DNA from: Schmidtea polychroa
Taxonomy: Eukaryota
Direction of reading: 5' to 3'
NCBI GenBank assembly: GCA_044892525.1
Contig: CM097885.1
Location: 235,414,001 to 235,478,000 of the forward strand
DNA length: 64,000 bases
The translations under genes and the position numbers were made by a program. Below are positions 3,156 to 64,000 of this stretch, piece after piece. A model generated the notes under the pieces. The model did no database searches and had not been told where the DNA came from. It saw only the letters and a list, made by a program, of their open reading frames with translations. Numbering within the stretch: the first letter of the stretch is position 1; every line of letters begins with the position of its first letter.

Positions 3156-3329
3156 CACCTTTCTATATTTAAGTTCAAAATCATATACTGATAGATTTGT
3201 CAGTCATATATGAAAATAAGTGCTTATTGCATTTTTTCTAATACTCAAGAAAATCAAAGCTTTATTGTTTGTTTTATTGTTTTATTCAATATAAGTATTC
3301 TTTAAAATATGTTAAATATTCATAGACTG

Positions 3330-4020
3330 CCAGAAGTTCTTTTCTCGTATCAGAATAACCCTTTCATGTGCTATAAGATGCCTGGAACAATAACCTATCA
3401 CCTTTTTCTTTACCGTCTTCCTTAACCTGCCGTAAAACTATCCCAATTGCTCCAAAATTGAATCTGCATCCAGTATGCACATTACATTTTCCGTCAGAAA
3501 GTCTAATATTGGTGTTTCCCACAGTCTGTATTTCAATGTTTGGAAACTTTCCTCACACTCTTTTGCCAACACTATTTTTTTCATAACCTGTAGTGGCTGA
3601 ATATAAAGGTTCTGAGATCTTTGCTTTTTCTATAATAAACCTTATATAGTAATTAGTCAAACCTAAAAATGATCGAAGTTGTTTTGCATATTTTGGAACC
3701 GCTGCTAACTTGATTTCATTTAATTTTTTGAATTTGTCTAACATCCTTTTGCACTAATGATATGCCCTAAGAATACTAACTCGGTTTTATAAAGGTTGCA
3801 CTTCTCAGGATTTATTCTCAGCCCTATCTGTTGAATTCTGTTGAATTCTGTTATGTGTTTATTATAAATATCAAGATATCTTTGAGGAAAAGAACCAAGT
3901 CCTCCAATATTGCGTGAATCAGCCTTTGAAATGTGGCTAGGGATGTAGGCAATCCAAAATGTAGTCAATTAACTCAAAATTGACTTTCTTTAGCATTAAA
4001 TGCCACCTCTCCTGTGCTAA
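3330..4020 (-). pseudogene. Decayed Gypsy pol fragment (RT C-terminus to RNase H)
   Basis: Minus-strand peptides GLRINPEKCNLYKTELVFLGHIISAKG, KQLRSFLGLTNYY and AIGIVLRQVKEDGKEKVIGYCSR, broken by frameshifts. Confidence 0.85.
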
Positions 4021-4612
4021 TGGTGTCACTCTTACTTAATAAAATAAAAATAATTAAATAAAATCATAGAAATGTTTAAAATTTTTAAAATTTATATTAT
4101 TTTGTAAAGACTTTTTCACAAAAAAATGTTAGATTATGTTAAGGAATTTTTTACGCAAAATTCATAGAAATTAAACCACATTTTGGAAATAAACAAAAAG
4201 ATTTTTACATACTTTTTCAAAAAAAATTCTTACTTTTATTGTGAAAAATCCGTCATATTTTCTAAAAAAATATTTTTAAAAATTCTTTATAAAATCAGTG
4301 TAAAAATTAAAACGCGTGAGAATGACGATAAATAATTAAATCATATATTAAATTTAATTAAATTAATTAATATTAATTTTTCAAAATCACAATCGACGTA
4401 GTTAATATTTAATTTAATGAATATTAATGGGGAATTTATTAATATTCAGGGTAAATGAGGATGAATATCGAAAAATTAGCTTATTATTAGCATATATAAA
4501 AATAAAGAATTTCATAGAACCTATTAAAGTATTTTATTAAATTAAATTAATTGTTTTAAACAATTTGCTTATCTAATTAAAAAAGCGATAAAAAATATAT
4601 TCATTAATATAG

Positions 4613-45400: not shown

Positions 45401-47562
45401 TTTCCCCAATTGATTCGCTGTTGAATGACTGATCTAAAATTAACAATATCAATAAACTTAAAAGTATGATTAATATTATTTTTCATTTAAAAATATTCAG
45501 ATAAACCGACTCATCAAATCCCTTTATGACTGGGGCGGTAAAGGTCATCATATTAATGAAATAATTATATTTCAATCAAAATGAAACTTACAAATTTATG
45601 AAAATAAAATCAAGTTTTCAATTTTCGTCATTTGAATTTGCATCTATAAAAAATATATAATAAAAATAGATAAAATTTTCGGTATAAAATTATAACGAAA
45701 AGTTCTCATTAAAAGAAATTGTGCATCATAATTCAAATCAGACGGCACTTCCAAAATTAATCATAATTTAAATAAAAACTTAAAATAAAACTCAACATAC
45801 TTAGAATTTCAAGATTCATGTTTTAAACGATTTCATTAGACATAGTAAAATCGATAGTTTAAAAGCATAATTTGTATTTCATATTAGTTATTTAAACAAA
45901 ATTTGAAATATTTTAAATATAATTTATGACTTTTTTATTATTACTTTTTTCTAGAAAGATTTTCATGCAAATATGTGATAATTATTTGGTTTAATAGATT
46001 TTTCTTTTAATATTGAAAGCCATATTTTAATCTAATAACCAATTTAAAATGAAGAGATGAAATTTTCTACAACTTAGCTTTATTCATATACATTTTTCTT
46101 ATAATTAATTTTATTGTATATATTTATAATTAACACAATTGTTGGCATTAAGTCATTATGGTCATTTAATTTTAAATATTGTTTAGATTTATAAAATAAA
46201 AGGGAAATATGTTGTCTATCTGTTGCTACGCCTCTCGATCAATTCTTTTTTGGTACAACGGCAATGTCTGAACCATCACCAATTGACTCCACCCATATGA
46301 TGTGGCGTATATGTAATAATCAGCCATAAAAAATCGACGAATTCTACAGGATAACGTCCATTTTGGAAGTTTGTGGCAGCTTGTATAGTCACTGCTTTCT
46401 TTCAATACTTCGAAAATTTCACTTATTACTAATTTCAAATCAATTCACTTTATTTTCCACTGACTTTTTAATCATTAAATATTTCCCCACCGACCTTTAG
46501 ATTACGCCGGGCTTACCAAAATTTGAGTTAGTTTTAAATGATTCTGTGGGATATTTGAGAATCTAACTCCACGTGCTGTTGATCAAAGAACTGGCTCCAC
46601 GATAGTAACTTTTATTGATATTACACTTTACAAACTGAAGTTTTAATATTTTTACTTGATCTATGGGCAGGTAACCATATGGAAGACCATCTAGAGTAAG
46701 TTGACTAAACGAATTTGATATTACTCAAAAGAACTTTTCTTTTCTTTGATGCTTTTGGTTTTGCATTAATTTCAATTACTTCACTTCTTTCACTTTATTT
46801 ATTTTTTGTCTCAGACCAGAAAATTGACCAGCGATCTACCTTTATCGCTCATTTCTATAATTTTATTCACGGATCTTTTCAGTGATTTTTACTGATTGAG
46901 TAAGTCTTTTGCTTTTGCAGAAATGCTATCATTTGATTTCGATGGAGACTTGCCTAATTTCGATTAATATTGGATCTAAAGTCTAACTACTTGAGACAGA
47001 ATGTTTTGTTAAATACTCTAATTGTATAATGCCACAAGATTTCCTTTTACATATAAATACGAGTGTTGGGCTAAAACGTGGAGTTTCGAAAACTGGAGCG
47101 AATAGAAAAGTAATCCTTGAAAAATAAACGAAATAAAATAAAAATATAAAGTACCATCAAATTCTCGCTAATAAATCAAAAAGGAACAATAAAATATCAA
47201 TAAGAGAATAAGAATAAGTAAAACAAACTAAATAAAACCCAATAAACCCCTTGAGATTTAGAAATAAAGCGATTTAGGACCCAGCAGATGAAATAGAATA
47301 AAATAAGTAAAAAAGTGACAACAAATAAAAGAGAAATTTAAGAAATAAATAAAAAATAAAACTATCTTTAAGTCTAATTAAAACAAAAAATTATATTACA
47401 ATAAAGTAGCAATAAATCCACAGGAAAAATAGGAGGAAAATAATAAAAATAAGAAAATAAATAAAATAATAATAGGAAATAAGTTAAGTCATTAAAATCT
47501 AATATATTATAATAAAAAACATAAAAATAATAATAAATAGTAAAAATACAAACAAGTCGTGT

Positions 47563-47590
47563 CCTGATTGGACGAAAAATAATATATAAG
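47563..47590 (+). promoter_or_regulatory. Candidate LTR promoter: inverted CCAAT (ATTGG 47567-47571) and TATATAAG (47583-47590)
   Basis: Motifs are seen directly after an A-rich U3-like tract. Function is inferred. Confidence 0.35.
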
Positions 47591-49996
47591 GAACGGAAAA
47601 TATCTGTAGATTACCACTTTTAAAAAATTTTTCTACAGGTAAACTTCGGTTCGTTATATACTACCACTTTTAAAAAATTTTTCTACAGACTTGACAGATT
47701 TCGGAACCTTTAATTATCCTACAGCGAACTAGTTCAGAGATTACCAAACCAAACCGAGGAAGAAATATATAGAGGCCAAACTACAAATCCATTCGGGAAA
47801 AATTTTAAATTCAACCGATTTAACTTCAGTTTTCGAAACTCAAGGTATGCCTCGACAGTTGTTTTATTTATGGTTATTAGTTTAATTTAGTTAATCATTA
47901 TAAATATAATAAAACAATTTCTTATAATAAATTTATTTAAATGAAAAGTTGCCTTTCTTCATGGTACCGACGACTGTACCATCTGAGAGCTCCCAGTATG
48001 ATGTGGACGAGTTGGAATTGCACTGCAGTAGAGGACACCACCGTGGAAAGGTTGGTATGCATAAGAAATCACGAACATGCTGAAAAGAGAATGTGATATT
48101 TGTAGAGAGTGATATTTGTCATATTAGAGATCCACCAAGGAGACGATGAGGTTTCGATCATGTAGGAGGAGCAACATCATACTCGGAGATCCAAATGATA
48201 TGGTCGCCGGGTAAATTTTATTTATGCATTTTCTATCATTCAGTTTGATTATTATATTGTTGATTTGATTGAATGGAAAAGAGTTGATTGGTCCCTCATG
48301 ACGGTGCAAGGAGGTGGCAGCAATGAATGCCTTCTTGGGTGTGTCGTGAGGGGTGAAGAAACTCAGTAGGTGGAACATCCAGTTAATAAATGACCGTTCC
48401 TTCATCAAGCGCGATCGTCTGTAGAGCGTACCATCGGTTCATTTAGTTAAATCGAGATTTCCAGTAGATGTAGAGATGATTTGAATTCCGAATGCAGACA
48501 ATTCAGAGCGAGATAGGCAGTGACGTTCGTACAGATTCGATGATAATCCACATAGATAGGAGGAAAATTCTTTTCGTGATATTCAGCCGGTCAATCGACG
48601 TAGTTAGGAAAGAACGGTGTCGACCATAGATTGCAAGTAAATCCAACGATTTTTCGGTGACGCTCTGCGTTTGCAAGGTTCTGTCTGATTTGTGCCGTCA
48701 TGATGTTAGCGGCTACATCCATTGTCGATGTACTCTTACGATTTGATTGTCGTCCTTGAGTCACCAATGCCAGTGATAAAGAATCTCTCGCTGACAGGGA
48801 AGTAAACATCTTGTAGTGAAATTATCAAAATTCTTACTTCGAGCCCGCAGACAGTAGTTGTCAACGATAACGAAATCAGTTGATTTGCATTAGCCTGCGT
48901 AGAGTTAGTCGACAGGAGATATCTGATAACGTCCTGGAGAAGGAGATAACATGTTAACTTTTCTGGGAAAATGTCAAATGAATAAGCTGATAGTCATTGA
49001 TCTGAATTAATATCGTAAAAGGAAATTAGATGATATTGTTGAGCTTACCCAATAATCTATGAAGTTGTCGCCCACTCAGATTGATTAATCTGATTTTTCG
49101 ATTCATCTACGGCTGCTTATTTGAGGAATCTATTACGCAACCGCTAATATTCCGACTTGAGCATGCACATACACACGCACCACAGTCAAATATGCATAGG
49201 GCAGTGTAAAAGGAAATCAACGATTTTGGTGATGTAATAGCGGCATGATGGTATAAATTTCTCTAGAATAGCGAGATAATAGGATGAAGTAAGGGGATGG
49301 ATTTCCCCTACACAACTCGATATACAATAATTTATCATAACAGCATAAACCATCATTCGCGGAGATAGCCAACATACAGTTACAGATACCACCAGGAGTA
49401 ATGACACACCTACACAGTCAATCATAATGCATAATCACAAGTAAACGTTTTCCATGACGACGATTTTCGACGCGTTATTGGAATTAATTAGATGTAGATT
49501 AGAGCTGAATTTTCAACTGATTACACGATCAATTCCATAATTTTGAACGAGATAAAAACATAAATAATCTATTCCGTCGCCGTGAATTATTTCTCTGTAA
49601 TGTTAGGCAGGCCTACCTCGACGAATTGCCATAATGATATCGGCAAAAATTCTTAATTAAAATATACTAATGGGAACAAGGTTGAAGGGGATAAAGTAAA
49701 AGACGGGTTTTACCTGGGAATGGCCCATCCGAAATTAAACTCAAAGGGCGAGGTTTGTGTAGAAAGAATTTTTGGTATACGAATCCCCGTTTCCTTTTCT
49801 TAAATTACACGAATCAGGTGAAGAGATTTGAATGTTTGCAACTGAATGACTGCGTATAGAGATGGATGAAGAAGTGTGTGGGTCATCGTTGGGTGGTATG
49901 TTTGATCAAACTCCAAAACCATGCCCAAAAATTTGATTTTTCTTCACACTGATAGAGGTTTCTTCGAGTAAATATAAACAATGATTGATTTTCTAG

Positions 49997-50758
49997 ATGG
50001 CTACATCGTCCAACAACGCCAAAGAACTTCGCCCGTGTTTTTCTTGTGCGGACAAGAACGCGGATATCGCCCAACTCCACTTATATATCGGGGCTCTCAA
50101 AAAGAGAATTGATCTCTATGAAGGAACGTGGTTCTCCCCGCCACAAATGAAAGAGGAACGCAAGAAAATTCTCCGATTAGAGCATTGCAGGGACAGCCTG
50201 CTAGAGGAAAGCCGTTGTCAGCGGCTCACCATCAAAGCACAGTCAGAAGCCCTCCATAAGGTATATACGGAGGCAGAATTGGCTAAGCGGGTGCGAGAAT
50301 TCCCCGTTCTGGATGGGACGAATGTCTTTCCTCGTCACCACCCGTCTCCTACATCTTCCGGCTCGCACTGCCAGGGGCACGGCTCACAACTGCCGCCCAT
50401 TCCACCCCCGGTGTTGTCATGTCACCAGCCAAAGATAGGTGGACCTACTGATCCCATCGTAGCTCCAATCTTGGTAGCACCAATCGGTACCACGAACACC
50501 GAAAAACCCCCGACTACCCGCAAACGGAAACGGCCAACTCGAGCCGAGAAGAACCAAAAACGCCGAGATGCGATGACAGCACTCGAGACGTCCTTATCGG
50601 CGGCGAAATCAAAAATCCAAGAGATAACGTCCTCCCATTCAATCCCCTCAAAGGAAGTCTTCCGCATTGTTCCAGCTGAGGGCATCAAATACATTGTAGA
50701 TAGCCGATTACCGGTCGACATAGATGAGATACTGGCCGATGGGGATAACTTTGTTTAA
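49997..50758 (+). CDS. Orphan accessory protein, 253 aa (CxxC, coiled coil, Pro-rich linker, basic NLS-like RKRKR)
   Basis: Long intact GC-richer ORF, immediately preceded by the acceptor ttttctag|ATG and followed by an AATAAA signal near 50889. Confidence 0.75.
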   Translation: MATSSNNAKELRPCFSCADKNADIAQLHLYIGALKKRIDLYEGTWFSPPQMKEERKKILRLEHCRDSLLEESRCQRLTIKAQSEALHKVYTEAELAKRVREFPVLDGTNVFPRHHPSPTSSGSHCQGHGSQLPPIPPPVLSCHQPKIGGPTDPIVAPILVAPIGTTNTEKPPTTRKRKRPTRAEKNQKRRDAMTALETSLSAAKSKIQEITSSHSIPSKEVFRIVPAEGIKYIVDSRLPVDIDEILADGDNFV

Positions 50759-51758
50759 TGTGATGTAAAATTGAGCTTGATTTCCTCTTCATTGAGTTGT
50801 AAATTATCTCGTGAATGTTGCTAATGTTATATCTTTTTGACTGTTGTTGATCTGTTAGTAGTAATGATATTTTTATCGTTTCAGTGTCAATAAAATTTTC
50901 TGTTTGATTTTAGTTTTGTCGAGCTTTCATATATTTGTTTGTGCAATTAGAGTAGATGAGATAATGCTGCGGAATGAAGATAATTAAGGTTGAAGGTTGT
51001 TCCTTTGGACCAGGATCAGACCGAGTGACACGCATGTATATGGGTAAGTCCTTCTAAGGCACCGTGGGACCCGAACTGAGAAAGGGTTAGGAGTAGTCCT
51101 AAGGCAGGGGCTCACCTGCTAACCTTTTCCGACCCGTGTGAGCAGCACCAACATGGAACATCACCATGGGCTCATATGTGGGAATATGCAATCAATCATT
51201 TGGAGTATGTGTAGAAAATGTATAACGGAGCCATGATGCTTGATAGGTGTGATGGAAAGGCATGTATAATTTTTTTTTTCTTCTCCACATACGCCAACAT
51301 GATTTTTGGGGGCTCAGCCGGGATCTATATTGATTTGTTTGATTGTCTATTTTTGTGTTATGATGTGTTAGATTAACAATTTAATTAATTATGATAAAAA
51401 CGGAATCGGGGCTGAAATGAATTATAGTGCAATAAAATGATACGAACTGTCTGAGTTTGAAATAGAGCATGTGGTGAATGAAACGAACCTAAATGAGTTG
51501 GAATGAATGTGATGAAGTATGATGAGAAAAGAAAACGGGAATTGGTTATTGTGGTTAATTTTAACTGGTTAAAATAAAAGGGGGGGCGGAGAAAGTAAGT
51601 GATTAAAGCGAAAAGATGAAAGGGGAACTTCAAAGATCGAATAAAATACAAAAGTTAAAACACTAACGCACAGAAGTCAACGAATACTAAATACAAATAT
51701 AATAATATTATTTTTAATACCAGCAGGAACAAAATAATAACAACACATTCATTTAGAT

Positions 51759-52238
51759 ATGTCAGAAGCTAGACAACATCTACAACAGCTAAGCCGGTTC
51801 GTCGAAATAGAAAATGATTCAATAAAAACATTAAGAGAAAAACTGAAACAAATAGAACTGCTAGAACAACAAAGCCACAACGCACCGCTGATATCCAAAC
51901 AAAACTTTCTAACCGACAGATTAGGATCAACAAATACCGATACCGACTTGTCTATTCATTACCAATGGTTTCAGCAACGTCTCGACGACCCCGCTCTGAA
52001 CATCGAATATGTGAGGATACGCGAACGAGTCAAAACTCTGTCTCAGCGGATACGAACATCAATAGTAGAGAAAGCAGCGGCCTTGAGAACTTGTAACATT
52101 TGCAAGATGCGACCTGTCAAAATTCTGATTCTACCTTGTGGGCACCTTAGCCATTGTGACGAATGCGCCGCCGGTTTAATCCGTTGTTCTATGTGCACAT
52201 GTGTAATAAAAGAGAAGCACACCATCTACTTCAGTTAG
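51759..52238 (+). CDS. Coiled-coil plus C-terminal C3HC4 RING (IAP/MDM2-type) putative E3 ligase, 159 aa, no BIR
   Basis: CNIC-x11-PCGH-x3-CDEC-x6-CSMC followed by the hydrophobic tail IYFS-stop, the layout of IAP-type RINGs. Confidence 0.9.
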   Translation: MSEARQHLQQLSRFVEIENDSIKTLREKLKQIELLEQQSHNAPLISKQNFLTDRLGSTNTDTDLSIHYQWFQQRLDDPALNIEYVRIRERVKTLSQRIRTSIVEKAAALRTCNICKMRPVKILILPCGHLSHCDECAAGLIRCSMCTCVIKEKHTIYFS

Positions 52239-52821: not shown

Positions 52822-53265
52822 GAGACATTAAGGCCGAGCTGTTGAAAAGTCCAGCCGGTCAGGGAAATTGAAACTGAGCTGTGAAAAGTCCAGCCAGTCG
52901 GAGATATTAAGGCCGAGCTGTTGAAAAGTCCAGCCGGTCAGGAAAAATTAAAACTGAGCTGTGAAAAGCCCAGCCAGTCGGAGATATTAAGGCCGAGCTG
53001 TTGAAAAGTCCAGCCGGTCAGGAAAAATTAAAACTGAGCTGTGAAAAGTCCAGCCAGTCGGAGATATTAAGGCCGAGCTGTTGAAAAGTCCAGCCGGTCA
53101 GGAAAAATTAAAACTGAGCTGTGAAAAGTCCAGCCAGTTCGGAGATGAAGAAGATTGAGCTGTTGAATAGTGCCAGCCAGTCGTAAGATCGAGTTGTTGA
53201 ATAGTCCAACCGGTCAGGAGAAGAAGATTGAGCTGTTGAAAAGTGCCAGCCAGTCGTAAAGGCCT
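52822..53265 (+). repeat. Tandem array: four 80-bp units (two sub-repeats each) plus three diverged sub-repeats
   Basis: GAGATATTAAGGCC recurs at 52901, 52981 and 53061. The core GAGCTGT(T)GAA(A/T)AGT(G)CCAGCC(A/G)GTC occurs 11 times. Confidence 0.95.
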
Positions 53266-53923: not shown

Positions 53924-56900
53924 TTGATTCGTGTAAGCAAAGGCAACACGATATCATATTTTCATTGTAGACATCAATCCAACCAAGTCAATTCAGAACC
54001 AGCTCAAGAGGAATCCAGAGAATATACAAACAACCCAGGAAAAGCAATTCAGAACCCGCACAAAGGAAGACAATATCAAAACCGAACTCGACCAATTCAG
54101 CAGACGCTAACCGTAGAAAATCCACGTGAAAAGACAGAAAAGAGTAAAAGGAAAATCACGGATAAACCCAACCTTAGATCTTCAAGTAAGCCAGGAGACG
54201 TATTATTTTCAGGAGACGAATTAGATCAACTCAAAAGAGGACGATCATTTAGGCAGCAGAGAGGAATATCACAAGGAGCAAAAAGACCCCACAAAACACC
54301 GATATACGATCAAGAAAACCCCACAGCCGGACATACGCCCAGTCGATCTAGAAGTAGAGAAAGTCTATCCGATATAACAAACAACCTAACCGGGTCAACA
54401 GAAGAATTATCCGTCCATAATTTAGCTACATCATTAGAAAATTTAAAAGAAATTTTAGCATTTCAAGAACCAATCAAGATGAATGTAGCAAAAACCGACG
54501 AATATAAAGAAAAATTTAGAGGCGAACCGTTCAACGGGAATGCGAACAAGTTGGCAACGTTCATAACCAATTTTGAAGTCTATATCGATGTGTGTGGATG
54601 GACATCCGAAGCAATTAGTAAACGAATGCCTCTGTTTTTGTGCGATAGCGCACTCGAAGTGTATCTGGAAGCAAAAGAAAGAAATACGAAATTAGACAAT
54701 TGGGAAAACATCAAAACATTTTTGAGAAAAACATTCGGAGCCAGCAAACCGATAAATCAAGCGTTAGGTGAACTGGCAAGTAGAAAACAAAGAGCAAACG
54801 AGTCAATTACGTTATACGCAAGTGAATTGCGAAGATTGGCAAAGAAGGCCATGAACGGAAACTTGCCGGAGGAAAACTTAATTGGGTACTTCATAGAAGG
54901 ACTACGCCGAGAAGAGGTAAGGGCCTCGGTGGGATGTCAAATGTGTAAAACACTAGAGGAAGCTATAGATTGGGCCACAAGATGCGAACTACACCTCCCG
55001 GCACAAATGAATGTCATGCAAGAGGAAGGAAGAATCGCAACAGCAGCGGTGAAAACGGAAAATGGAGATAACAATAATCATGAACCAAAGATGAATCAGT
55101 TTATACCAGGTGCGCATCAAATTTTCAAACCACCACAAGGACGATCAAACGGGAATAACAGTGAACGCAACAACTCGAACAATGGGAACAACTTTAATAA
55201 TCGACGAAATATGAACGATAACAAACAATGCCGAACATGCGGTAAACCAGGACATTGGGATAGAGATTGTTACCGAAACGCAAATTGCAATAGGTGTGGA
55301 CGACGAGGACACACGGAAAATATATGCCAATCGAGAGGATGTTTTAACTGCGGGCAACCAGGTCATATCTCAAGAGACTGTCGAGAAAGGAGCCAACATC
55401 AACGACCACCACAGCGAAATAATAACTATGCACCAAATCCGCAACGACAAAGTAATCCTAGTGAGGGAAAGCAAATGAATGTGATGCAAGAAATTTCACA
55501 AATGAAGCAGATGATGCAACAAATGATGAGACCGAGACAAGAGCAAGTACCACAACAAACCCAGAATATACGCATGATGAGAAGCACCGAGAATCTTAAC
55601 AATTATGAAGTGCAACAACATGCACAAGAATGGCAAAGACTACAAGCTGAAGAAGAAAGGATAAAAAGAGAGCGAATTCAGCAGCGACAAGAACAACCAC
55701 TACGAATAAATATGATGAGGATGGTAAAGGAGATAAAGGAGCAATATTGTTACAATTACGGTAAAAATCCAAGAGTTGTACCTATGAGCGAACCAGAGAA
55801 ACCGAAAGAAACAATTCCAGCAGCAAAAAAGGAAAATTCAACAACACCGCTAAAAGGAAATCAGAGAATTCAGAAAATATTTTGGAAAAAGATAAAAGAT
55901 AAAATCGAAAGAGAAAATGAGCAAACAAAAACAGAAGCAGAAGCAGAAAATAACGAAAATGGAAAACAGATTAATCATCTAAAGCATAATATGATACGAG
56001 AATTAGACTCAGAGGAGCTAACGATACTCGAGAACAAAAAGTTAAAGAAAGTACCAAGAATGAAAAATTTACGAATTAATATGATGAGGACAACAAAGAA
56101 GGTGTTGTCAACAGATGACGATGAGGATTATGTGAGTAGCCTTGGTGGAGAAATGTTACAGTTAAATGAAAATATCGACCAACTAAGAGAAAAGATCGGA
56201 GCAGATGAGGATGAAAGAGAAAGCGACGTGACAAGCGAAAGCGAAGACGAGAATATCGAAATGAAATTGAGAAAAGAAAGAGAAGAAGCGATAAAACAAG
56301 TAAAGGAAATACTTCCAGTGGTAGTAAGAAACCAGGAGTTCATCGACCTTATACCATATAAACGCTTCTTACAAAAGATAATGAAACTAGAAAGAAACGA
56401 AAAAGATCTAATACCAAACGAGGAAAAAGCGATAATAAAGAAGTATATGGAAAAAATGAAACAAGCGGAGACAACACGCTATGTAATAAAAATCGGAACG
56501 AGTAAAGGACTCGAGAGAATATGGATAAAAAATGCAGTCACAGACGAGCTTTTTGATTGGATAAGAGAACATTTGGGCAGCTCGAGAAAGAAAGAGTATT
56601 TATATCAATATCAAGGAGAACAAATTAAGCCAGACATGCACCTAATAGATGCATTGATCTGGCCAGGAGAAACTCAAATATTGAAATTGTATAAAGAGAA
56701 GCAACCAGCAAATATTCACGAATGGGCTAAAGACGCCAAGGCCGAGTATGATTTTAACATCAAGCTGAAGCTGGAACAAATAAAACAATGCACCTTGCGA
56801 CGAAATCTAGATAAATTAATCAAACAAATTCAAGAACAAGTCGAAGATAACTGGGATTTACTCATAGCAAGACGAACTCCAGACATGCATGAACTAATGA

Positions 56901-59900
56901 GCCGATTACGAGATACAGAATTGCTCAGGATGAGCGATTGGAGAACCATAAATTTGATCCACAAATATGGAAGGTTGAAAGAAACGCAACCGCAGAAATT
57001 AGAAATAACCATATGGTTACCAAACGAGGAGAAACGACGAATAAAGATGAGTAATCAGAGTACGGTGGATGACTTAGTAACCAAGATAAACCAAGAGATA
57101 ACGGAAAAAGTACGAAGCGAGAGTAGCGACGGGATGATAGATGACGTAGTCATGATGTACGATAAAATAATATTACGGGCCGAAGACGACACCTCGCTAA
57201 GCGAAATGGGAATGTGGGATAATCATCAAATCATCAGAATATTGCCCATGGACGAATTCCGAACAAGAGATATAACATACCAGAAAGAAATACGAGACAG
57301 GATGAAAACGCTATATCAAAAATCAGTAGAGATAATTGAAATTCATCAACAGTGGCTAAAAGAAAAAGAGCTTCAAGGAAAAATAAAGAAACTAAGTGTT
57401 AGATCCTGCAGACGAACCCCATGGGAAAGGACGTGGAATGCGGAAAACAAAGAATGGGAAATCAGGAAAGGGATTTTCGTGGAAACAGACATTGGTGAGA
57501 TAGAAAGCGAATCAGAAGAAGAGGAAGATGAACCTCCAAAATACGAAGAGGACGAAATAGAATCGACATCGGACGACGAAAGCGAAACGGATGTTACATC
57601 AGAAAGTGAAACGGAAACCAGACATATTCATGCGATGAGAAAGAAAGAACGCGAATATGCCGATATGGACAGCGAAGAAGCGATGGAAGCTCGAGAACGA
57701 GAAGAGAAGGAAAGATATAAACAATTAGGTGATATCTTAGCAACGGGAACAAAAAATCAAAAACGTCAAGTAATAGCATTGGCTAACATCATCCTAAAGA
57801 CATCAGAGAATATCCACAATCTAAGAGAAATGGCGAAAGCGATTGAGGAATACAGACAATATAACGAATGGTACCCAGAACAGCTAGAACAAATTATTAG
57901 GAAATGGAGAAACCAAGAATGGGCACAAGATACCCAGGAAAGGTATCGTATCCGAGTCAAGTATCCCGACAAAAGCATTGAGGATACAGAAGTACATCCA
58001 ACAACAAAGATCAGAGAGTTAAAAAAGAAATTAGCATACGAAACTCCATTTCACCTACAACTATTCGGAAAATCGTTGGATGATAATGCAGATGTCGGAA
58101 TAACACCCATGAGATTGGGGGAGATCAATGTATTGACAATGGCAGAAACATTGGGAAAACCGATTAAAAGGAAGAGCAAATCCAGTAAACCTACGAAAGG
58201 TAGCTTGAGTACACCAAGCCCTAACAAAGTGGCAAGTAAAACGAATGAAACCGAGGAAATCGAGGAAATTATATTGGAAGACAGCGATGAAGGAGCTGGA
58301 GAAAGATCACCAATTCTGGTAAGATGGCCGACAGGAGCCGAAATATGGACAACAAGCCAACCGTCAACTAGCTATCAGCAGCCAAATAAGCTGAGTATCG
58401 AGGAGATTATCGATAATACAACAGAAACCGAAACCGACGAACAATTCCAACGACAGAAAGGACCAACGAAAGCAACACCAGAAGGTCAAACGGACAAAAT
58501 AATAGACGAATGGAACGAATGGCTGAGAAACAACGATAGCTCATTGCCAAGAACGGATAACGAGAGAAACCCGAATTATGAAAATACAAGGGAAGCCGGA
58601 ACAATGATGGAAAAACGGGCAAAAGGGAGACCCAAGAAGCAAGGAGAAAAACCGGAATTTAAAACTAGAGAACAACTGAAACAAGAACAAGGACAAGTCA
58701 GATTAGAGAAACTGGATAAAATAGTGTGGGATCTAAAAGAGGCCCAGCCAACTATCGAAAGAGGCGAAAAATGGATACGAGAGCTAGTAAAAGATATGCT
58801 AATAATAACGAACCCACAATTGCGACGGTTATGGCAACGAAAAGTAGCAAGCGTAGACGCCAGACAACTATGGAATACAATATCCGGAATAATTCCGAAA
58901 TTAATCAAAGAGAAGACAAAAACCACTAAAACCGATTGGGAAGAGACAAGAAGAGTAATTGAACAATTAACTTTAAACGCAAACGACGACGAACATCATT
59001 TAGTAGTATTAACGTATCTAATGTACAATTTGATGGGATTAGCAGCGAGGAAAATACCTAACAAACAATTCGCAAATCATGTAGAAATGACCGTTACAAT
59101 CATCGAAAATACAATCGAACCACATATTATCCGCGCCGGTGGGTGGAAAAGACTCATACAAGCGCCACGAAAAAACGAGCAAGAGAGATCAATGCAAATT
59201 CGGTTGAAGAAATTACTAAACAAGCTAGAATGGGAATTGCCATTGAAAGACCCAGCCAGCAGAAAAGCGTCGATTAATTCACTAATGATGACCATGATGA
59301 TATGGATGCTCTGCACCAGTGGAGCCGCGGGATTTACTATTTACGACTGTGACAATTCGATAATAGGAGAAAGATACTCCCTGAGAGATATAGAGGAATG
59401 TAGACAGGCGTCTCCGAATAAATTAGATATAGTAAAAAAGAAAGTCTCCTATCACGTATACCAAGAATCAGATTTCATTAGAACGCAAGCTAGAGAATGC
59501 GTAGTATCGAAGAAAGTGTTGGCATATTACTGTGGACAATACTCATATTCAACCCTCATATTACCTGGATTAGATAAAGAAATAGTACCTATACAACGGG
59601 AAGACTGTAAAGAGCTTTTTAGAACCGGAGCGATGAGAATCAGGGATGGAGTAACAATACACGGACAAAGCGGAATGATCAAGACGGAAAGTATCTATGT
59701 AGCCGGACGAGTAAAATCAACGGATGGATCATGTAACGGAGGCACATATACGATCAGAGGAGAGGTGATATCAGGAGTAGTAGTAATTGAGTCCTACACA
59801 GTGGAGTTGAAGGAATACGAAGCACAATTCGACGCAAACAACTATCAAATGAAAACCAACCCAGCATGCAGAGCTACGGAAAACGTGTGTAGAACGGGGA

Positions 59901-62900
59901 TTTCGACTATAATATATGAAGCTAACACCCAAAAATGCCGACTCCAATTGTTAAAAAGTGCTCTATTCAATGAAGTAAAAGGAGAAATTTACGAAAACGA
60001 GGATGACGATGAAGAGAATGGAAACGTAAGGATGCGAAATGGGAAACCAGTTCCGCCATCCCCCAAAGAAAAGAGACTCACAACCCAAAAAACACCAACG
60101 GCATTAATTACCGATGATCCAGACATCGGCATGAGATTCATTAGAGAAAAAGAGACCACCAAATGTGACAGTATAGTATACTGGACGAACTACGCAGGTA
60201 TCTACATGTCAAGGCAAGTAATAGACCGAGCAGTGGGAAAGGTAGCAACGGAGGACGTAAAATTGTACCTGTATGCCAATAATAAGATGGACTTCTTGTT
60301 CCACCGAGGACAAACGACAATGCAAAAAGTGTATTACGATCTTATACAAAATGACTGTTCATTGAATAAAGAGATACTAAAAACAAAATTAGCCATCGCA
60401 ATAACACACCCAGATAACACAATGCCATCACTCCCGTTACCGGATGGACATTTTGGTAGAATGGTGGGAGAGGTAATGTATACATATGCATGTACCAAGA
60501 CATTTGCGCGACTGCCAAGAAAGCCCACAATTCCACCAGGGAAATGCGCAAACGAGTTGGAAATTAGTTACAAAGGGCGAAACAGATTCGTTCAACCCGT
60601 CACTCGAATCATGAACCCAATTGGATTTTATCCGAACACCTTTAACTGTTCAAATGCATACGGACCGTTATATGAAAAACCCGATGGGAAATGGATAATG
60701 TTACCAGTAAAAACCGAAGTACAAGAGCCTAAAAAGTTTGGACTAATAGAACTCGCAACAGAACAAGATTTCAAACCAATTGATGTGTCAAAAGCAGGTA
60801 TGTACTCACCAGAGGATTTAGAAACGGCACGATTAAACGTATTATTCCCAGCAAGACGGGAATCCATTCTATCGAATATGGTTACCATAACTGGGGGAAC
60901 GAATTTCCAGTCAGGCCCCAATTACGAACTATTATTGTCACCTGATCATTTTCAACAAGCCACGTCAAACATGATGAAAGCAATGTGGGGAAGATTTCTA
61001 GTGTTCGGTCAAATGATGGCAGGAATATTGGGAATCATTCTTATTATCCAGATAGTTAGAGTAATATTGACTCAAATGTTAGCGTGTTTTGATATCTATA
61101 AGAGAGAAAAGAAGGTAAATTGGAAATTGATAGTAGGCTTTCTACCATTTTTGGCAAAAACAATGGTGTTGCACGGTCATTCTAAAGACATACATAGAAT
61201 AAAACGATTGATCAAAATACTGACAAAAATAAAAGGAACTGACGAGGAAGTCGGTAGACGATTTCGGAAAACAATGTATGATGAAGCAACAAGGACGCAA
61301 CTGAAAAAGAACAAACCAAAATTCTTAGACAGATTTAGGAATCGATCAAACAGCAGCGATAGTGATGATGACGACAACGGGAATGACAAATACCCATATC
61401 CAAGTAGAAACCCGAATGAAAAGCCAATAGAAACAGCACCATATTGGGAGAAAGAAAAAACAAATACCTGGATAGCCAACGGAAGTTATATACCACCAGA
61501 TATCGTTGGACAACAAACAGCTTTGACCATGACACAAAATATGTATCCACAGTTACCAAGTCAACCAGGGATGAACTATATGCCGACCCGAAGAACGAAA
61601 AGTGTAGACCAAGCGGACGACGTAAGAACGATAGCAGTGATGAGTTCACCAGGAGGTGCGGCAGTAACAGTCATGATCCAAATCAACGGGAAAGAGACAA
61701 GCGCAATGATAGATACCGGAGCAAACGTATCAGCAATAGCAATAAACCAAATACCCAGTAAATGTTGGAAAGATATCGAACAAACAACTATCCATATTAT
61801 TGCATGCAGTAAAGAAACCGTAGACGTAGTAGGAAGATGGTGGACTACGTTACGATATCAGGATAACGAAATTGAAACGTATCTAGCGGTGATACCCAAA
61901 CTGAGTGAACCATGTATAATCGGAACGGATTTAATGCCGGAATTGTTTAAGGAAGTAGTAATCGATTTAACAACAATGTGTCTAAAAGACAAAATGGGTA
62001 GAATATGCAAGATGAACGCAATAATTAGATGTCCGGAGAAAATAATTGTACCCGCAAAATCACAGATGATATGTCAAATAAAAGTGGATGCAGGAATGGA
62101 AGGAGAAGTCATTTTTGAGCCAAGCAAATCATTCGAAAAACGACGAGAATTACCATTAGCAAGAGAAATAATAACAATAAATGAAGACGGGGAAATACCA
62201 ATTAACATCACAAATTTCGAGGAAGAAGACAAGATCATATATGAAAATGAAAGATTGGGTAGATTGACACCCATGATAGACATCGAATTACCAAAAATCA
62301 CCAACGAAACAACGAAAGCGGACGAATTATGGATAATTGATAGCACCTTGCTAACGGAAAAAGAAAAGGAGAGACTTCAACAATTATTGATAGAATATAA
62401 AGATATATTCGCAATTTCGGATTTAGATTTGGGAGCATGCGATGTTACACTACACGCAATACCATTAATAGACGAAACTCCAATCGCACTACGTCCATAC
62501 AAACTAGCAGAGAAGCAAAAAGAGATAGCCGAAGCAGAAGTACAAAAAATGCTAGATGCACAAGTGATCGAACCAAGTTGTTCGCCATGGCAATTTCCAG
62601 TAGTCATGGTGAAGAAAAAAGACGGTACTCAGAGATTCTGTATCGATTATCGGAAATTAAATGCAGTAACAAAAAGAGACACATACCCTTTACCAGACAT
62701 CAATGAGATGTTACTTATGTTACAGGGGGCCGCATATTTTACATCTTTAGATCTGAAAAGTGGATATTGGCAGATCAAAGTCAAGGAGGAAGACAAAGAG
62801 AAAACAGCATTCACATTGGGCCGAGATCTATACCAATTCAGGAAAATGCCGTTCGGACTGACCAATGCCCCAGCATCATTCCAGAGATGTATGAATTTTG

Positions 62901-64000
62901 TCACACACGGGATCAAGCAGTGTATGGTATATATTGATGATTTATTAATATATTCAGCAACTTTCGAACAACATTTGGAAGATATCAGAAACGTGTTCGT
63001 TCGATTACGACAATGGAAACTGAAACTTAAACCATCCAAATGTGATTGGGCAAAAGAAAAGGTTACGTTCTTAGGACACATAGTGTCAGCAAAAGGCAAA
63101 GAACCAGATCCAAGAAACATAGAAAAAATAAAAACATGTCCAGCACCAAAAACTGTCACCCAAGTTCAAGAATTTCTCGGATTATGCGGATATTATCGAA
63201 AATTCATCAAAAACTATGCAGGTATTGCGAAACCAATACAGGAATTAGTGAAAAAGGATATTTCATTTATTTGGGGTGCAGAACAACAAAAAGCGTTTGA
63301 GACATTGCGAGATAAATTAATTGAAGCCCCAATACTAGTACATCCTGATTTCAAGAAACCGTTCCTATTAGCAACAGATGCAAGTGGATATGCAGCCGGA
63401 GCAATATTAGGACAACTGGATGAAGAAGGAAAAGAAAGAGTGATTGGATACTACAGTAGAACGTTTAAAAAGCACGAGAAAAACTATTCCGTAACCGAGA
63501 GAGAAGCGTTAGCAATCATACAAGCAATTAAACATTTTCGATATTTGTTATGGGGACACGAAATATGTATCACCACGGATCATCAACCATTAGTATGGCT
63601 TGGTCAACACAAAGAAGCTTCAAGTAGATTGATGCGATGGGCAATGCAGTTACAAGAATATTCACCGTTCATAAAATTCAAAGCGGGAAGAGCGAATGCC
63701 AATGCGGATTGTATGTCCAGATTTATCTTTCCAGATTTAGTAGATCACGAAATGCAACGAATATGTCTGATGGTAGCAGAAGATTTAGATTTTTGCCAAT
63801 TACGGAAAGACCAACAAGAGGATACAGAGTTGAAGCAAATCATTGAATATGTGAAAACAGGGAAAGCAGAGGTATATGAGAAAGATCAAAAATTGAAGGA
63901 GCATATGGATAAACATCGACATCGATATATTATCGAGAAAGATTGGTTATTGATAATGGATGGCGAGAAAAGACTGATGTGCATTCCCGAGAATAGACGT
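53924..64000 (+). CDS. Single Gag-accessory-Env-Pol polyprotein, at least 3359 codons, 3' partial; first in-frame ATG at 54479
   Basis: Frame +2 is open from the TGA at 53921 to the window end. I translated most of it by hand and found no stop, and the track lists no closed frame +2 ORF here. Capsid, CCHC, DTG, YIDD and TDAS motifs all fall in this frame. Confidence 0.93.
   Translation, partial: [3359 protein letters not shown]
54479..55020 (+). other. Gag capsid domain
   Basis: [24 protein letters not shown]...[12 protein letters not shown]...[20 protein letters not shown]...YFIEGLR. Confidence 0.9.
55229..55381 (+). other. Nucleocapsid with three CCHC zinc knuckles
   Basis: [28 protein letters not shown] and [14 protein letters not shown]. 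Confidence 0.97.
56474..56700 (+). other. Ubiquitin/SUMO-like domain 1 (putative)
   Basis: [18 protein letters not shown]...[12 protein letters not shown]...[21 protein letters not shown], a beta-grasp-like pattern. Confidence 0.5.
56996..57250 (+). other. Ubiquitin-like domain 2 (putative)
   Basis: [32 protein letters not shown]...[29 protein letters not shown]. Confidence 0.65.
57941..58145 (+). other. Ubiquitin-like domain 3 (putative)
   Basis: [30 protein letters not shown]...[15 protein letters not shown]. Confidence 0.65.
58690..59170 (+). other. Bcl-2-like helical domain (putative)
   Basis: VIEQL...LVVLTYL followed by [15 protein letters not shown], a BH2-like GGW at BH1-BH2 spacing. 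Confidence 0.5.
59273..61620 (+). other. Internal signal peptide, chuvirus-like envelope glycoprotein ectodomain, TM anchor (about 60995-61090) and cytoplasmic tail
   Basis: [24 protein letters not shown]...YSLRDIEEC...YCGQYSYS...GSCNGG...LYANNKMDF...DCSLNKEIL...[10 protein letters not shown]...FVQPVTRI...AGMYSPEDL...[22 protein letters not shown], with 14 ectodomain Cys. Confidence 0.85.
61631..62023 (+). other. Aspartic protease
   Basis: [17 protein letters not shown] (DTG 61712-61720) and CIIGTDLM. Confidence 0.95.
62380..63200 (+). other. Reverse transcriptase
   Basis: [51 protein letters not shown] and YIDD (62930-62941). Confidence 0.98.
63355..63730 (+). other. RNase H (Ty3 type), followed by the start of integrase
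   Basis: [18 protein letters not shown]...VIGYYSR...[12 protein letters not shown]...ITTDHQPL...NANADCMSR. The window ends at [10 protein letters not shown], just before the expected integrase HHCC. Confidence 0.95.

Follow-up and report, generated by a model that had tools for sequence, protein, structure and literature searches.

A predicted Bcl-2-like domain adjoins a likely env signal peptide in a probable Burro-type LTR retrotransposon of Schmidtea polychroa

A 64,000-nucleotide stretch of the Schmidtea polychroa genome (here called the window) encodes Bcl-2-like motifs just ahead of a hydrophobic segment and a glycoprotein. A sequence-only reading of the locus had proposed a divergent Bcl-2 mimic of a DNA virus, whose tail anchor would double as the signal peptide of the glycoprotein and would keep the domain on the membrane after cleavage. 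We asked what kind of element carries the motifs, whether they belong to a Bcl-2 fold, and whether the domain is anchored or released.

The Bcl-2-like motifs are part of a Ty3/gypsy LTR retrotransposon with an env region. The DNA-virus setting was rejected, since the motifs lie between LTRs and in frame with reverse transcriptase (RT), RNase H and integrase; rather than a free-standing vBcl-2 gene of the DNA-virus type, we found a domain embedded in the polyprotein of an LTR element. The element is 30,585 bp long and is flanked by a 4-bp target duplication, CGAG. Its two LTRs are 100% identical over 4,236 bp, indicating that it is young. ORF1 is a single plus-strand frame of 4,626 aa, counted from the first ATG, in the order gag-env-pol, and it runs 1,452 aa beyond the window to encode integrase, ankyrins and a second membrane protein. 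Pfam matched the ankyrins at E 7e-18 and a MATH domain, encoded by a separate ORF downstream of ORF1, at E 8e-25. The features within the window are as follows.

47064 to 51299, plus strand: 5' LTR, 4,236 bp with TG...CA ends; the partner 3' LTR lies beyond the window (L011:9413 to L012:3648).
51759 to 52238, plus strand: accessory ORF of 159 aa with a RING finger at its C-terminus (Pfam PF13920, E 5.6e-8).
54479 to 64000, plus strand: ORF1 polyprotein with gag, three CCHC knuckles, ubiquitin-like domain, Bcl-2-like domain, env, protease, RT and RNase H (Pfam).
57950 to 58160, plus strand: ubiquitin-like domain, weak (Pfam PF00240, E 0.046; match 57950 to 58054, end estimated).
58736 to 59176, plus strand: Bcl-2-like helical domain, about aa 1420-1566 (Pfam, profile, structure model).
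58985 to 59047, plus strand: BH1-equivalent and central hydrophobic helix, with DEHH where NWGR is expected (model, alignment).
59114 to 59158, plus strand: BH2-equivalent with GGW; His replaces the first Trp (frame translation, alignment).
59273 to 59284, plus strand: INSL, an inferred candidate site for the element's own protease (rank 19 of 4,610 positions).
59282 to 59332, plus strand: likely internal signal peptide, with a hydrophobic core at about aa 1602-1612 plus a c-region; predicted cut at G1618/F1619.
59333 to 61069, plus strand: env, a Monjiviricetes-type fusion glycoprotein ectodomain plus TM helix (61013 to 61069) (Pfam PF24664, E ~5e-71; hydropathy).
61670 to 63661, plus strand: aspartic protease (61670 to 61945), RT (62609 to 63085) and RNase H (63272 to 63661) (Pfam).

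Several further features of the element were recorded. A candidate primer binding site of tRNA-Pro type lies just past the 5' LTR at window positions 51300-51330, and a tandem repeat with a period of about 80 bp occupies 52822-53259, between the RING ORF and ORF1. The LTR itself contains a 253-aa ORF (49997-50758) that had no Pfam match. No stop interrupts the ORF1 frame over the 185 codons 5' of the first ATG (53924-54478), so that it measures 4,811 codons from stop to stop, and ORF1-like frames of similar length are present in many copies. Downstream of ORF1, an accessory ORF (L011 4977-6365) encodes a whole TRAF-like protein that combines RING, zf-TRAF and MATH; three ORFs scanned after it had no clear Pfam match. 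Pfam found no BIR in either the 253-aa LTR ORF or the 159-aa RING ORF, and neither BIR nor dUTPase among the selected ORFs scanned.

The element is abundant. The 643-bp stretch that carries the motifs matched the 781-Mb genome at 98-100% identity in all 40 matches scored (313 candidates), and a protein-level search of the same genome gave 91-100% identity in 150 of 150 scored matches (1,628 candidates). More diverged copies of this family, which we call family A, fall into subfamilies (L105-L109) between which synonymous sites are near saturation (dS up to ~2 in large regions) and proteins are 85-98% identical, low-complexity spacers included. Compared with five diverged copies, the Bcl-2-like domain has a dN/dS of 0.02-0.03, indicating purifying selection. 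The whole ORF1 frame gave about 0.01-0.10 where computable, again including the spacers, so the Bcl-2-like domain is not singled out by selection.

By its matching layout, which by itself points to a dugesiid planarian as host, the element is likely of the Burro type found in these planarians (Burro/GYPSM1; PMC6431247; Jurka 2007; Grohme et al. 2018). As described in PMC6431247, Burro exceeds 30 kb and has one ORF with gag, a Ubi2/SUMO-like motif and a BCL2-like motif, the last credited to Grohme et al. 2018, and its env lies between BCL2 and protease and matches mononegavirus glycoproteins. The element in the window likewise has LTRs, a length above 30 kb and a single huge ORF in the order gag-env-PR-RT-RH-IN, with three CCHC knuckles, ubiquitin-like and BCL2-like domains (both weak) ahead of a mononegavirus-like env and in frame between gag and protease, as well as ankyrins, MATH/TRAF and hundreds of candidate copies. 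It differs from the description in PMC6431247 in that ORF1 has 4,626 rather than 4,873 aa, MATH/TRAF forms a separate ORF downstream of ORF1, and BIR and dUTPase were unmatched in the proteins scanned here; it is likened to Burro1-4 by description. The Bcl-2-like domain and its position ahead of env are thus already published for Burro. The Burro section of PMC6431247 mentions neither a signal peptide or anchor nor a missing NWGR, and we found no statement in the literature on an anchor or signal peptide at this place, a weak negative since Grohme et al. 2018 and Lee et al. 2026 may discuss the junction. BURRO1 expression is raised by smedwi-2 RNAi (PMC8532177), and the mention of Burro in PMC11410931 goes no further than the name.

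The residues quoted in the sequence-only reading were all found in one plus-strand frame: VIEQL at aa 1493 (58955), LVVLTYL at aa 1508 (59000), IEPHIIRAGGWKRLI at aa 1546 (59114), and AAG/F, with G1618 ending at 59332. The spacing claimed between the BH1-like segment and GGW also held: the offset from L1508 to the initial G is 46 residues, or 47 with both ends counted. Five of six host Bcl-2-family sequences (alignment A3) have an offset of 46 as well, as does Bcl-xL by hand count. NWGR is indeed missing, with DEHH in its place, and the best 17-aa hydrophobic window begins 45 aa after GGW, as had been estimated. The BH1-like segment had been described as a strand; in our model it is a predicted helix (H100-120).

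Taken by itself, the window sequence is a weak Bcl-2 candidate. It matched the Pfam Bcl-2 family (PF00452) at E 0.02 with 15.9 bits, below the gathering cut-off of 31.4, and a single-sequence search of the PDB matched no Bcl-2 protein. Support beyond chance comes from sister families. Protein homologue searches with the domain region, with the profile and with env found no relatives outside this genome; the window domain had 0 matches among 1.84 billion representatives and no ESM Atlas match at a threshold of at least 0.9, and the phage and viral contigs searched yielded no relatives. The collections searched may contain few eukaryotic repeats, so these blanks are no evidence of novelty.

Three sister families were found in the same genome. 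Family B came to light when the genome was searched with PF00452 (909 candidates, of which 150 were scored and 36 inspected) and is about 30% identical to the window element over the polyprotein stretch compared. Families C and D were reached through the env model (2,581 candidates, 68 of them scored), a route independent of Bcl-2; of the 10 places fetched, two (L099 and L102) were dropped for broken frames. In the profile of seven element domains, the Bcl-2-like domains of the sister families are 15-23% identical to the window copy. Pfam Bcl-2 was the best family for all five sister domains (E 9.9e-7 to 0.014, 16.4-29.7 bits), and the gathering cut-off was reached by no element domain, window or sister. 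We then scanned the junction in the window and 20 further loci, leaving out L077, L081-L083, L086 and L089-L092 (broken or not Burro) and L095. GGW, linker, hydrophobic segment and the YDC of env were present in 21 of 21 rows. The linker from GGW to the hydrophobic window measures 45 aa in family A, 48-50 in B, 20 in C and 33 in D, and in all four families the Bcl-2-like domain adjoins the hydrophobic segment. Elsewhere in ORF1, the ubiquitin-like domain of family C matched PF00240 at E 0.0016, and the end of the frame in families A, B and C has a second internal signal-peptide-like segment and a C-terminal membrane helix. This post-integrase segment (L011 ~3320-4359, with equivalents in L093 and L095) encodes an unnamed type I membrane protein.

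On profile and model evidence, we consider it highly probable that the domain has a Bcl-2 fold. A profile built only from element sequences (A1, seven domains) found Bcl-xL or Bcl-2 in all of the best 60 of 133 matches at E<=10, the top one at E 5.2e-4, although the choice of the family B rows by a Bcl-2 search makes this result somewhat biased. An AlphaFold2 model built on the seven element sequences, without host Bcl-2 rows, has eight helices at low confidence (pLDDT 54.9, pTM 0.42); a helical bundle around a central hydrophobic helix is present in it at moderate confidence (pLDDT 55). Foldseek gave 0 matches at E<=0.001 in either the PDB or the viral-model library. Of the 39 PDB rows listed, 38 were titled as Bcl-2-family proteins (the other title is incomplete), with a best E of 0.028 and TM of about 0.4-0.6; among viral models most of the named top rows were vBcl-2 proteins, and every E exceeded 0.09. 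In a VIA structure search of 48,161 chains, the top 17 of the best 50 rows were Bcl-2 proteins (Z 9.6-7.3, rmsd 3.5-4.8, 111-139 residues aligned), and the first unrelated row had Z 7.2 over 72 residues. Helical bundles may reach Z of about 13 by chance and the best Z here was 9.6, so coverage and unanimity, rather than Z, carry the case for the fold. The sequence-only reading had made its claim depend on the predicted fold being a Bcl-2 helical bundle, and the refuting outcome did not arise, as the leading Foldseek and VIA rows are Bcl-2 proteins; a divergent Bcl-2-like domain is thus supported at moderate confidence, shorn of its viral setting and with the Burro motif already in print.

Compared with cellular Bcl-2 proteins (Bcl-xL, Bcl-2, Bak; PF00452), the element domain shares the predicted eight-helix bundle, the 46-aa BH1-BH2 register, GGW and a hydrophobic segment after the domain. 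It differs in falling under the Pfam cut-off, in the loss of NWGR and of the first BH2 Trp, in lying within a polyprotein, and in a hydrophobic segment that leads into a predicted luminal protein instead of forming a short tail. Viral Bcl-2 proteins (ASFV A179L, KSHV Bcl-2, BHRF1, adenovirus E1B-19K, adintovirus Bcl2) are among the structure matches and are likewise divergent Bcl-2 proteins on virus-like elements; theirs are free-standing genes of DNA viruses, whereas here the domain is a putative processing product of a reverse-transcribing element.

We next considered the hydrophobic segment, which is very likely the internal signal peptide of env. By inspection, a basic n-region, a hydrophobic core and small residues at -3 and -1 are present in the four families, with Asn or Ser at -3 in family B. 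Three places ahead of YDC, 19 of the 21 rows have a small residue (G, A, S or C), and position -3 is then A, N, S or T; the other two rows, L073 and L093, represent a single family B place in which the three residues preceding YDC are missing. Within family A, 35 copies differ in the segment solely at -3/-2 (AAG in 31, ATG in 3, VSG in 1), although 30 of them share 99% or more identity with the window, which leaves about three independent variants. The Pfam env model also reaches into the segment, since its positions 5-7, the first matched, fall inside it in families B and D. Signal-peptidase cleavage at AAG/F, as originally proposed, is a sound inference from the four families and from the natural variants before F, and would fall at G1618/F1619. 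Env has 14 Cys in 560 aa, compared with none in the 381 aa before the segment, and only one N-glycosylation sequon. A strong TM helix is found at aa 2179-2197 and a weaker one at 2213-2231. Provided that the weaker helix stays out of the membrane, these features predict a workable topology with env luminal and pol cytosolic: the segment would insert co-translationally and send env into the ER lumen, the env TM helix would bring protease-RT-integrase back to the cytosol, and signal peptidase would cleave G1618/F1619, leaving the Bcl-2-like domain cytosolic and held by the signal remnant.

Does the domain stay there? The core of an internal signal peptide remains on the upstream protein, so the anchored form would be the first product. 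To that extent the proposed membrane-anchored product follows from topology; its persistence is less likely, because the Pfam env model covers the segment and a protease-like site lies at its front edge. That site, INSL (aa 1599), belongs to a motif, [IVM][NHAC]x[ML], that was picked after inspection of the sequence and that marks the protease, RNase H/integrase and post-integrase borders. It occurs 12 times in the polyprotein, compared with 4.6+-2.0 in shuffled sequences (one of 1,000 shuffles was as high). Scored against five border sites, INSL ranked 19 of 4,610 positions, and a similar site ahead of the second internal signal peptide ranked 9; the scorer is unspecific, as k-mers within env and RT outrank INSL, at 4 and 6, and of the five training sites two stand only at 74 and 185. 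The aspartic protease may cut near INVL (aa 1216) and INSL, which would free a product of about 380 aa. Such release would parallel that in flaviviruses, where NS2B/NS3 frees the capsid from 'anchor C'. Anchor C is both an anchor and the signal of prM and is cut off on the cytosolic side by the viral protease, while in HCV signal peptide peptidase releases the core protein (PMC7601889). As proposed for the element, the C-terminal anchor of a cytosolic protein there doubles as signal sequence for the glycoprotein that follows, and is later cut off; sequences and enzymes are unrelated, the upstream protein there is the capsid, and the processing is proven there (PMC7601889) and predicted here. 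For family A we give release of the domain an even chance.

The alternative is that the segment is a lasting tail anchor, with the Bcl-2-like domain remaining and acting on the ER membrane, and that it may descend from the anchor of a captured host gene. We think this unlikely, though it has points in its favor: topology yields an anchored first product regardless, Bcl-2 and segment are adjacent in four of four families, and the motif found in family A is absent from the linkers of B, C and D. The case is best in family C, where GGW is followed by 20 aa with a basic KKGK and then by 17 hydrophobic residues (mean 2.5), a tail-anchor-like spacing that resembles the GGW, ~23 aa and hydrophobic tail of small genomic Bcl-2 genes (L028). 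Hydropathy and spacing favor a tail anchor less in the window copy, whose hydrophobic core of about 11 aa is weaker than that of any sister family (17-aa mean 1.4 vs 2.35-2.95). Membrane anchors normally span about 18-22 aa, and a core of this size is short for permanence. Furthermore, the linker varies from 20 to 50 aa, the sequence of the segment is not conserved, and the env model takes in the segment. The second internal signal peptide, after integrase/ankyrin in families A, B and C, has no Bcl-2 before it, so a signal peptide in this element does not require a tail anchor as its source. Finally, signal remnants are often cleaved by signal peptide peptidase, as in HCV core (PMC7601889). 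The idea of a tail anchor doubling as signal peptide is therefore half supported: the segment behaves as the signal peptide of env, while a lasting anchor is called into question by the 11-aa core and 45-aa linker. Overall, our reading of a predicted Bcl-2 fold and an env signal peptide, with a brief ER tether and likely release by the protease, stands at about one chance in two when taken as a whole.

What might such a domain do? The W and G of NWGR are replaced in all seven element rows from the four families (DEHH, NRDK, DRDV/YRDV and DKEV). In the BH2 pattern W-x-x-x-x-GGW, by comparison, GGW is kept in seven of seven and the first W in six of seven, the window copy having His. The Gly and Arg of NWGR are needed for BH3 binding in Bcl-2 and Bcl-xL, so that, judged from the sequence, classical BH3 capture through the NWGR groove is doubtful, even though in several viral Bcl-2 proteins an altered motif is compatible with BH3 binding. 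We lean towards a putative pro-survival or immune role: where the element is expressed, the domain would damp signalling for cell death or stress, probably by a route other than the classical groove.

A Bcl-2 fold might also have a non-apoptotic job, binding innate-immune or ubiquitin-pathway partners or tethering gag-side products to env during particle assembly, and either membrane model would accommodate this. Poxvirus proteins of the A46/A52/B14 type have a Bcl-2 fold and innate-immune partners. The family-wide replacement in NWGR fits such a role, as do the TRAF/MATH, RING, ankyrin and ubiquitin-like domains that the element also bears. We regard it as rather improbable, since the closest structural neighbors are cellular pro-survival and effector Bcl-2 proteins, the GGW of BH2 is invariant, and Burro1 is reported to shield stem cells from caspase-mediated death by means of an IAP region (Lee et al. 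2026, as cited in PMC13465017), which makes death control a known aim of Burro elements. Far less probable again is an unrelated helical bundle that resembles Bcl-2 by chance: the window sequence alone has no significant match in the PDB, the ESM Atlas or the 1.84 billion representatives and the pLDDT of the model is low, but sister-family Pfam matches, the element-only profile and three structure searches converge on one family, the likeness spans the whole domain with an ungapped BH1-BH2 register, and a published HHpred-based annotation concurs (PMC6431247).

As to its origin, a tree of 14 domains placed the seven element rows on one side of a branch (support 79/88, not starred, long branches), with the one Maverick-like small Bcl-2 row apart from the Burro rows. 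This fits a single capture of the domain, presumably from a host Bcl-2 gene. A bolder scenario, which we hold to be doubtful, is that a host Bcl-2 gene entered Burro with its tail anchor attached, and that this anchor took on the role of signal peptide for a fusion protein captured from a virus. A single helix would then both deliver env and plant an NWGR-less Bcl-2 on the ER beside every env molecule, coupling env synthesis to the control of ER-stress death via a non-classical surface.

The genome contains other Bcl-2 genes. Small, dispersed, multi-copy ones (L028-L033 and L035-L042) include some with a short intron and a hydrophobic tail of their own, and their context (L110-L119) consists of Maverick-like elements with A32-like ATPase, integrase and mini-TBP. 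Two unrelated classes of mobile element, Burro-type and Maverick-like, thus carry Bcl-2 here. The many Bcl-2 matches with one TAG stop were considered as read-through Burro copies and rejected, as the TAG resembles a splice acceptor and the five loci examined sit in Maverick-like elements, not in Burro. Separately, a host Bcl-xL-like exon that retains NWGR occurs seven times, in near-identical copies clustered within 0.9 Mb (L013-L019; G000:C4, 89.9-90.8 Mb).

Altogether, our additions to the published Burro description are small to modest, and are absent from the literature found: structure-level support for a motif called by profile, a Bcl-2/signal peptide/env junction shared by four families, the family-wide loss of NWGR, and a predicted processing map with two outcomes, anchored or released. 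Burro1 is reported to protect planarian stem cells through its RING+BIR region (Lee et al. 2026, as cited in PMC13465017). With one IAP module already credited with protecting these cells, a putative second death-control module bears on how such elements keep their host cells alive.
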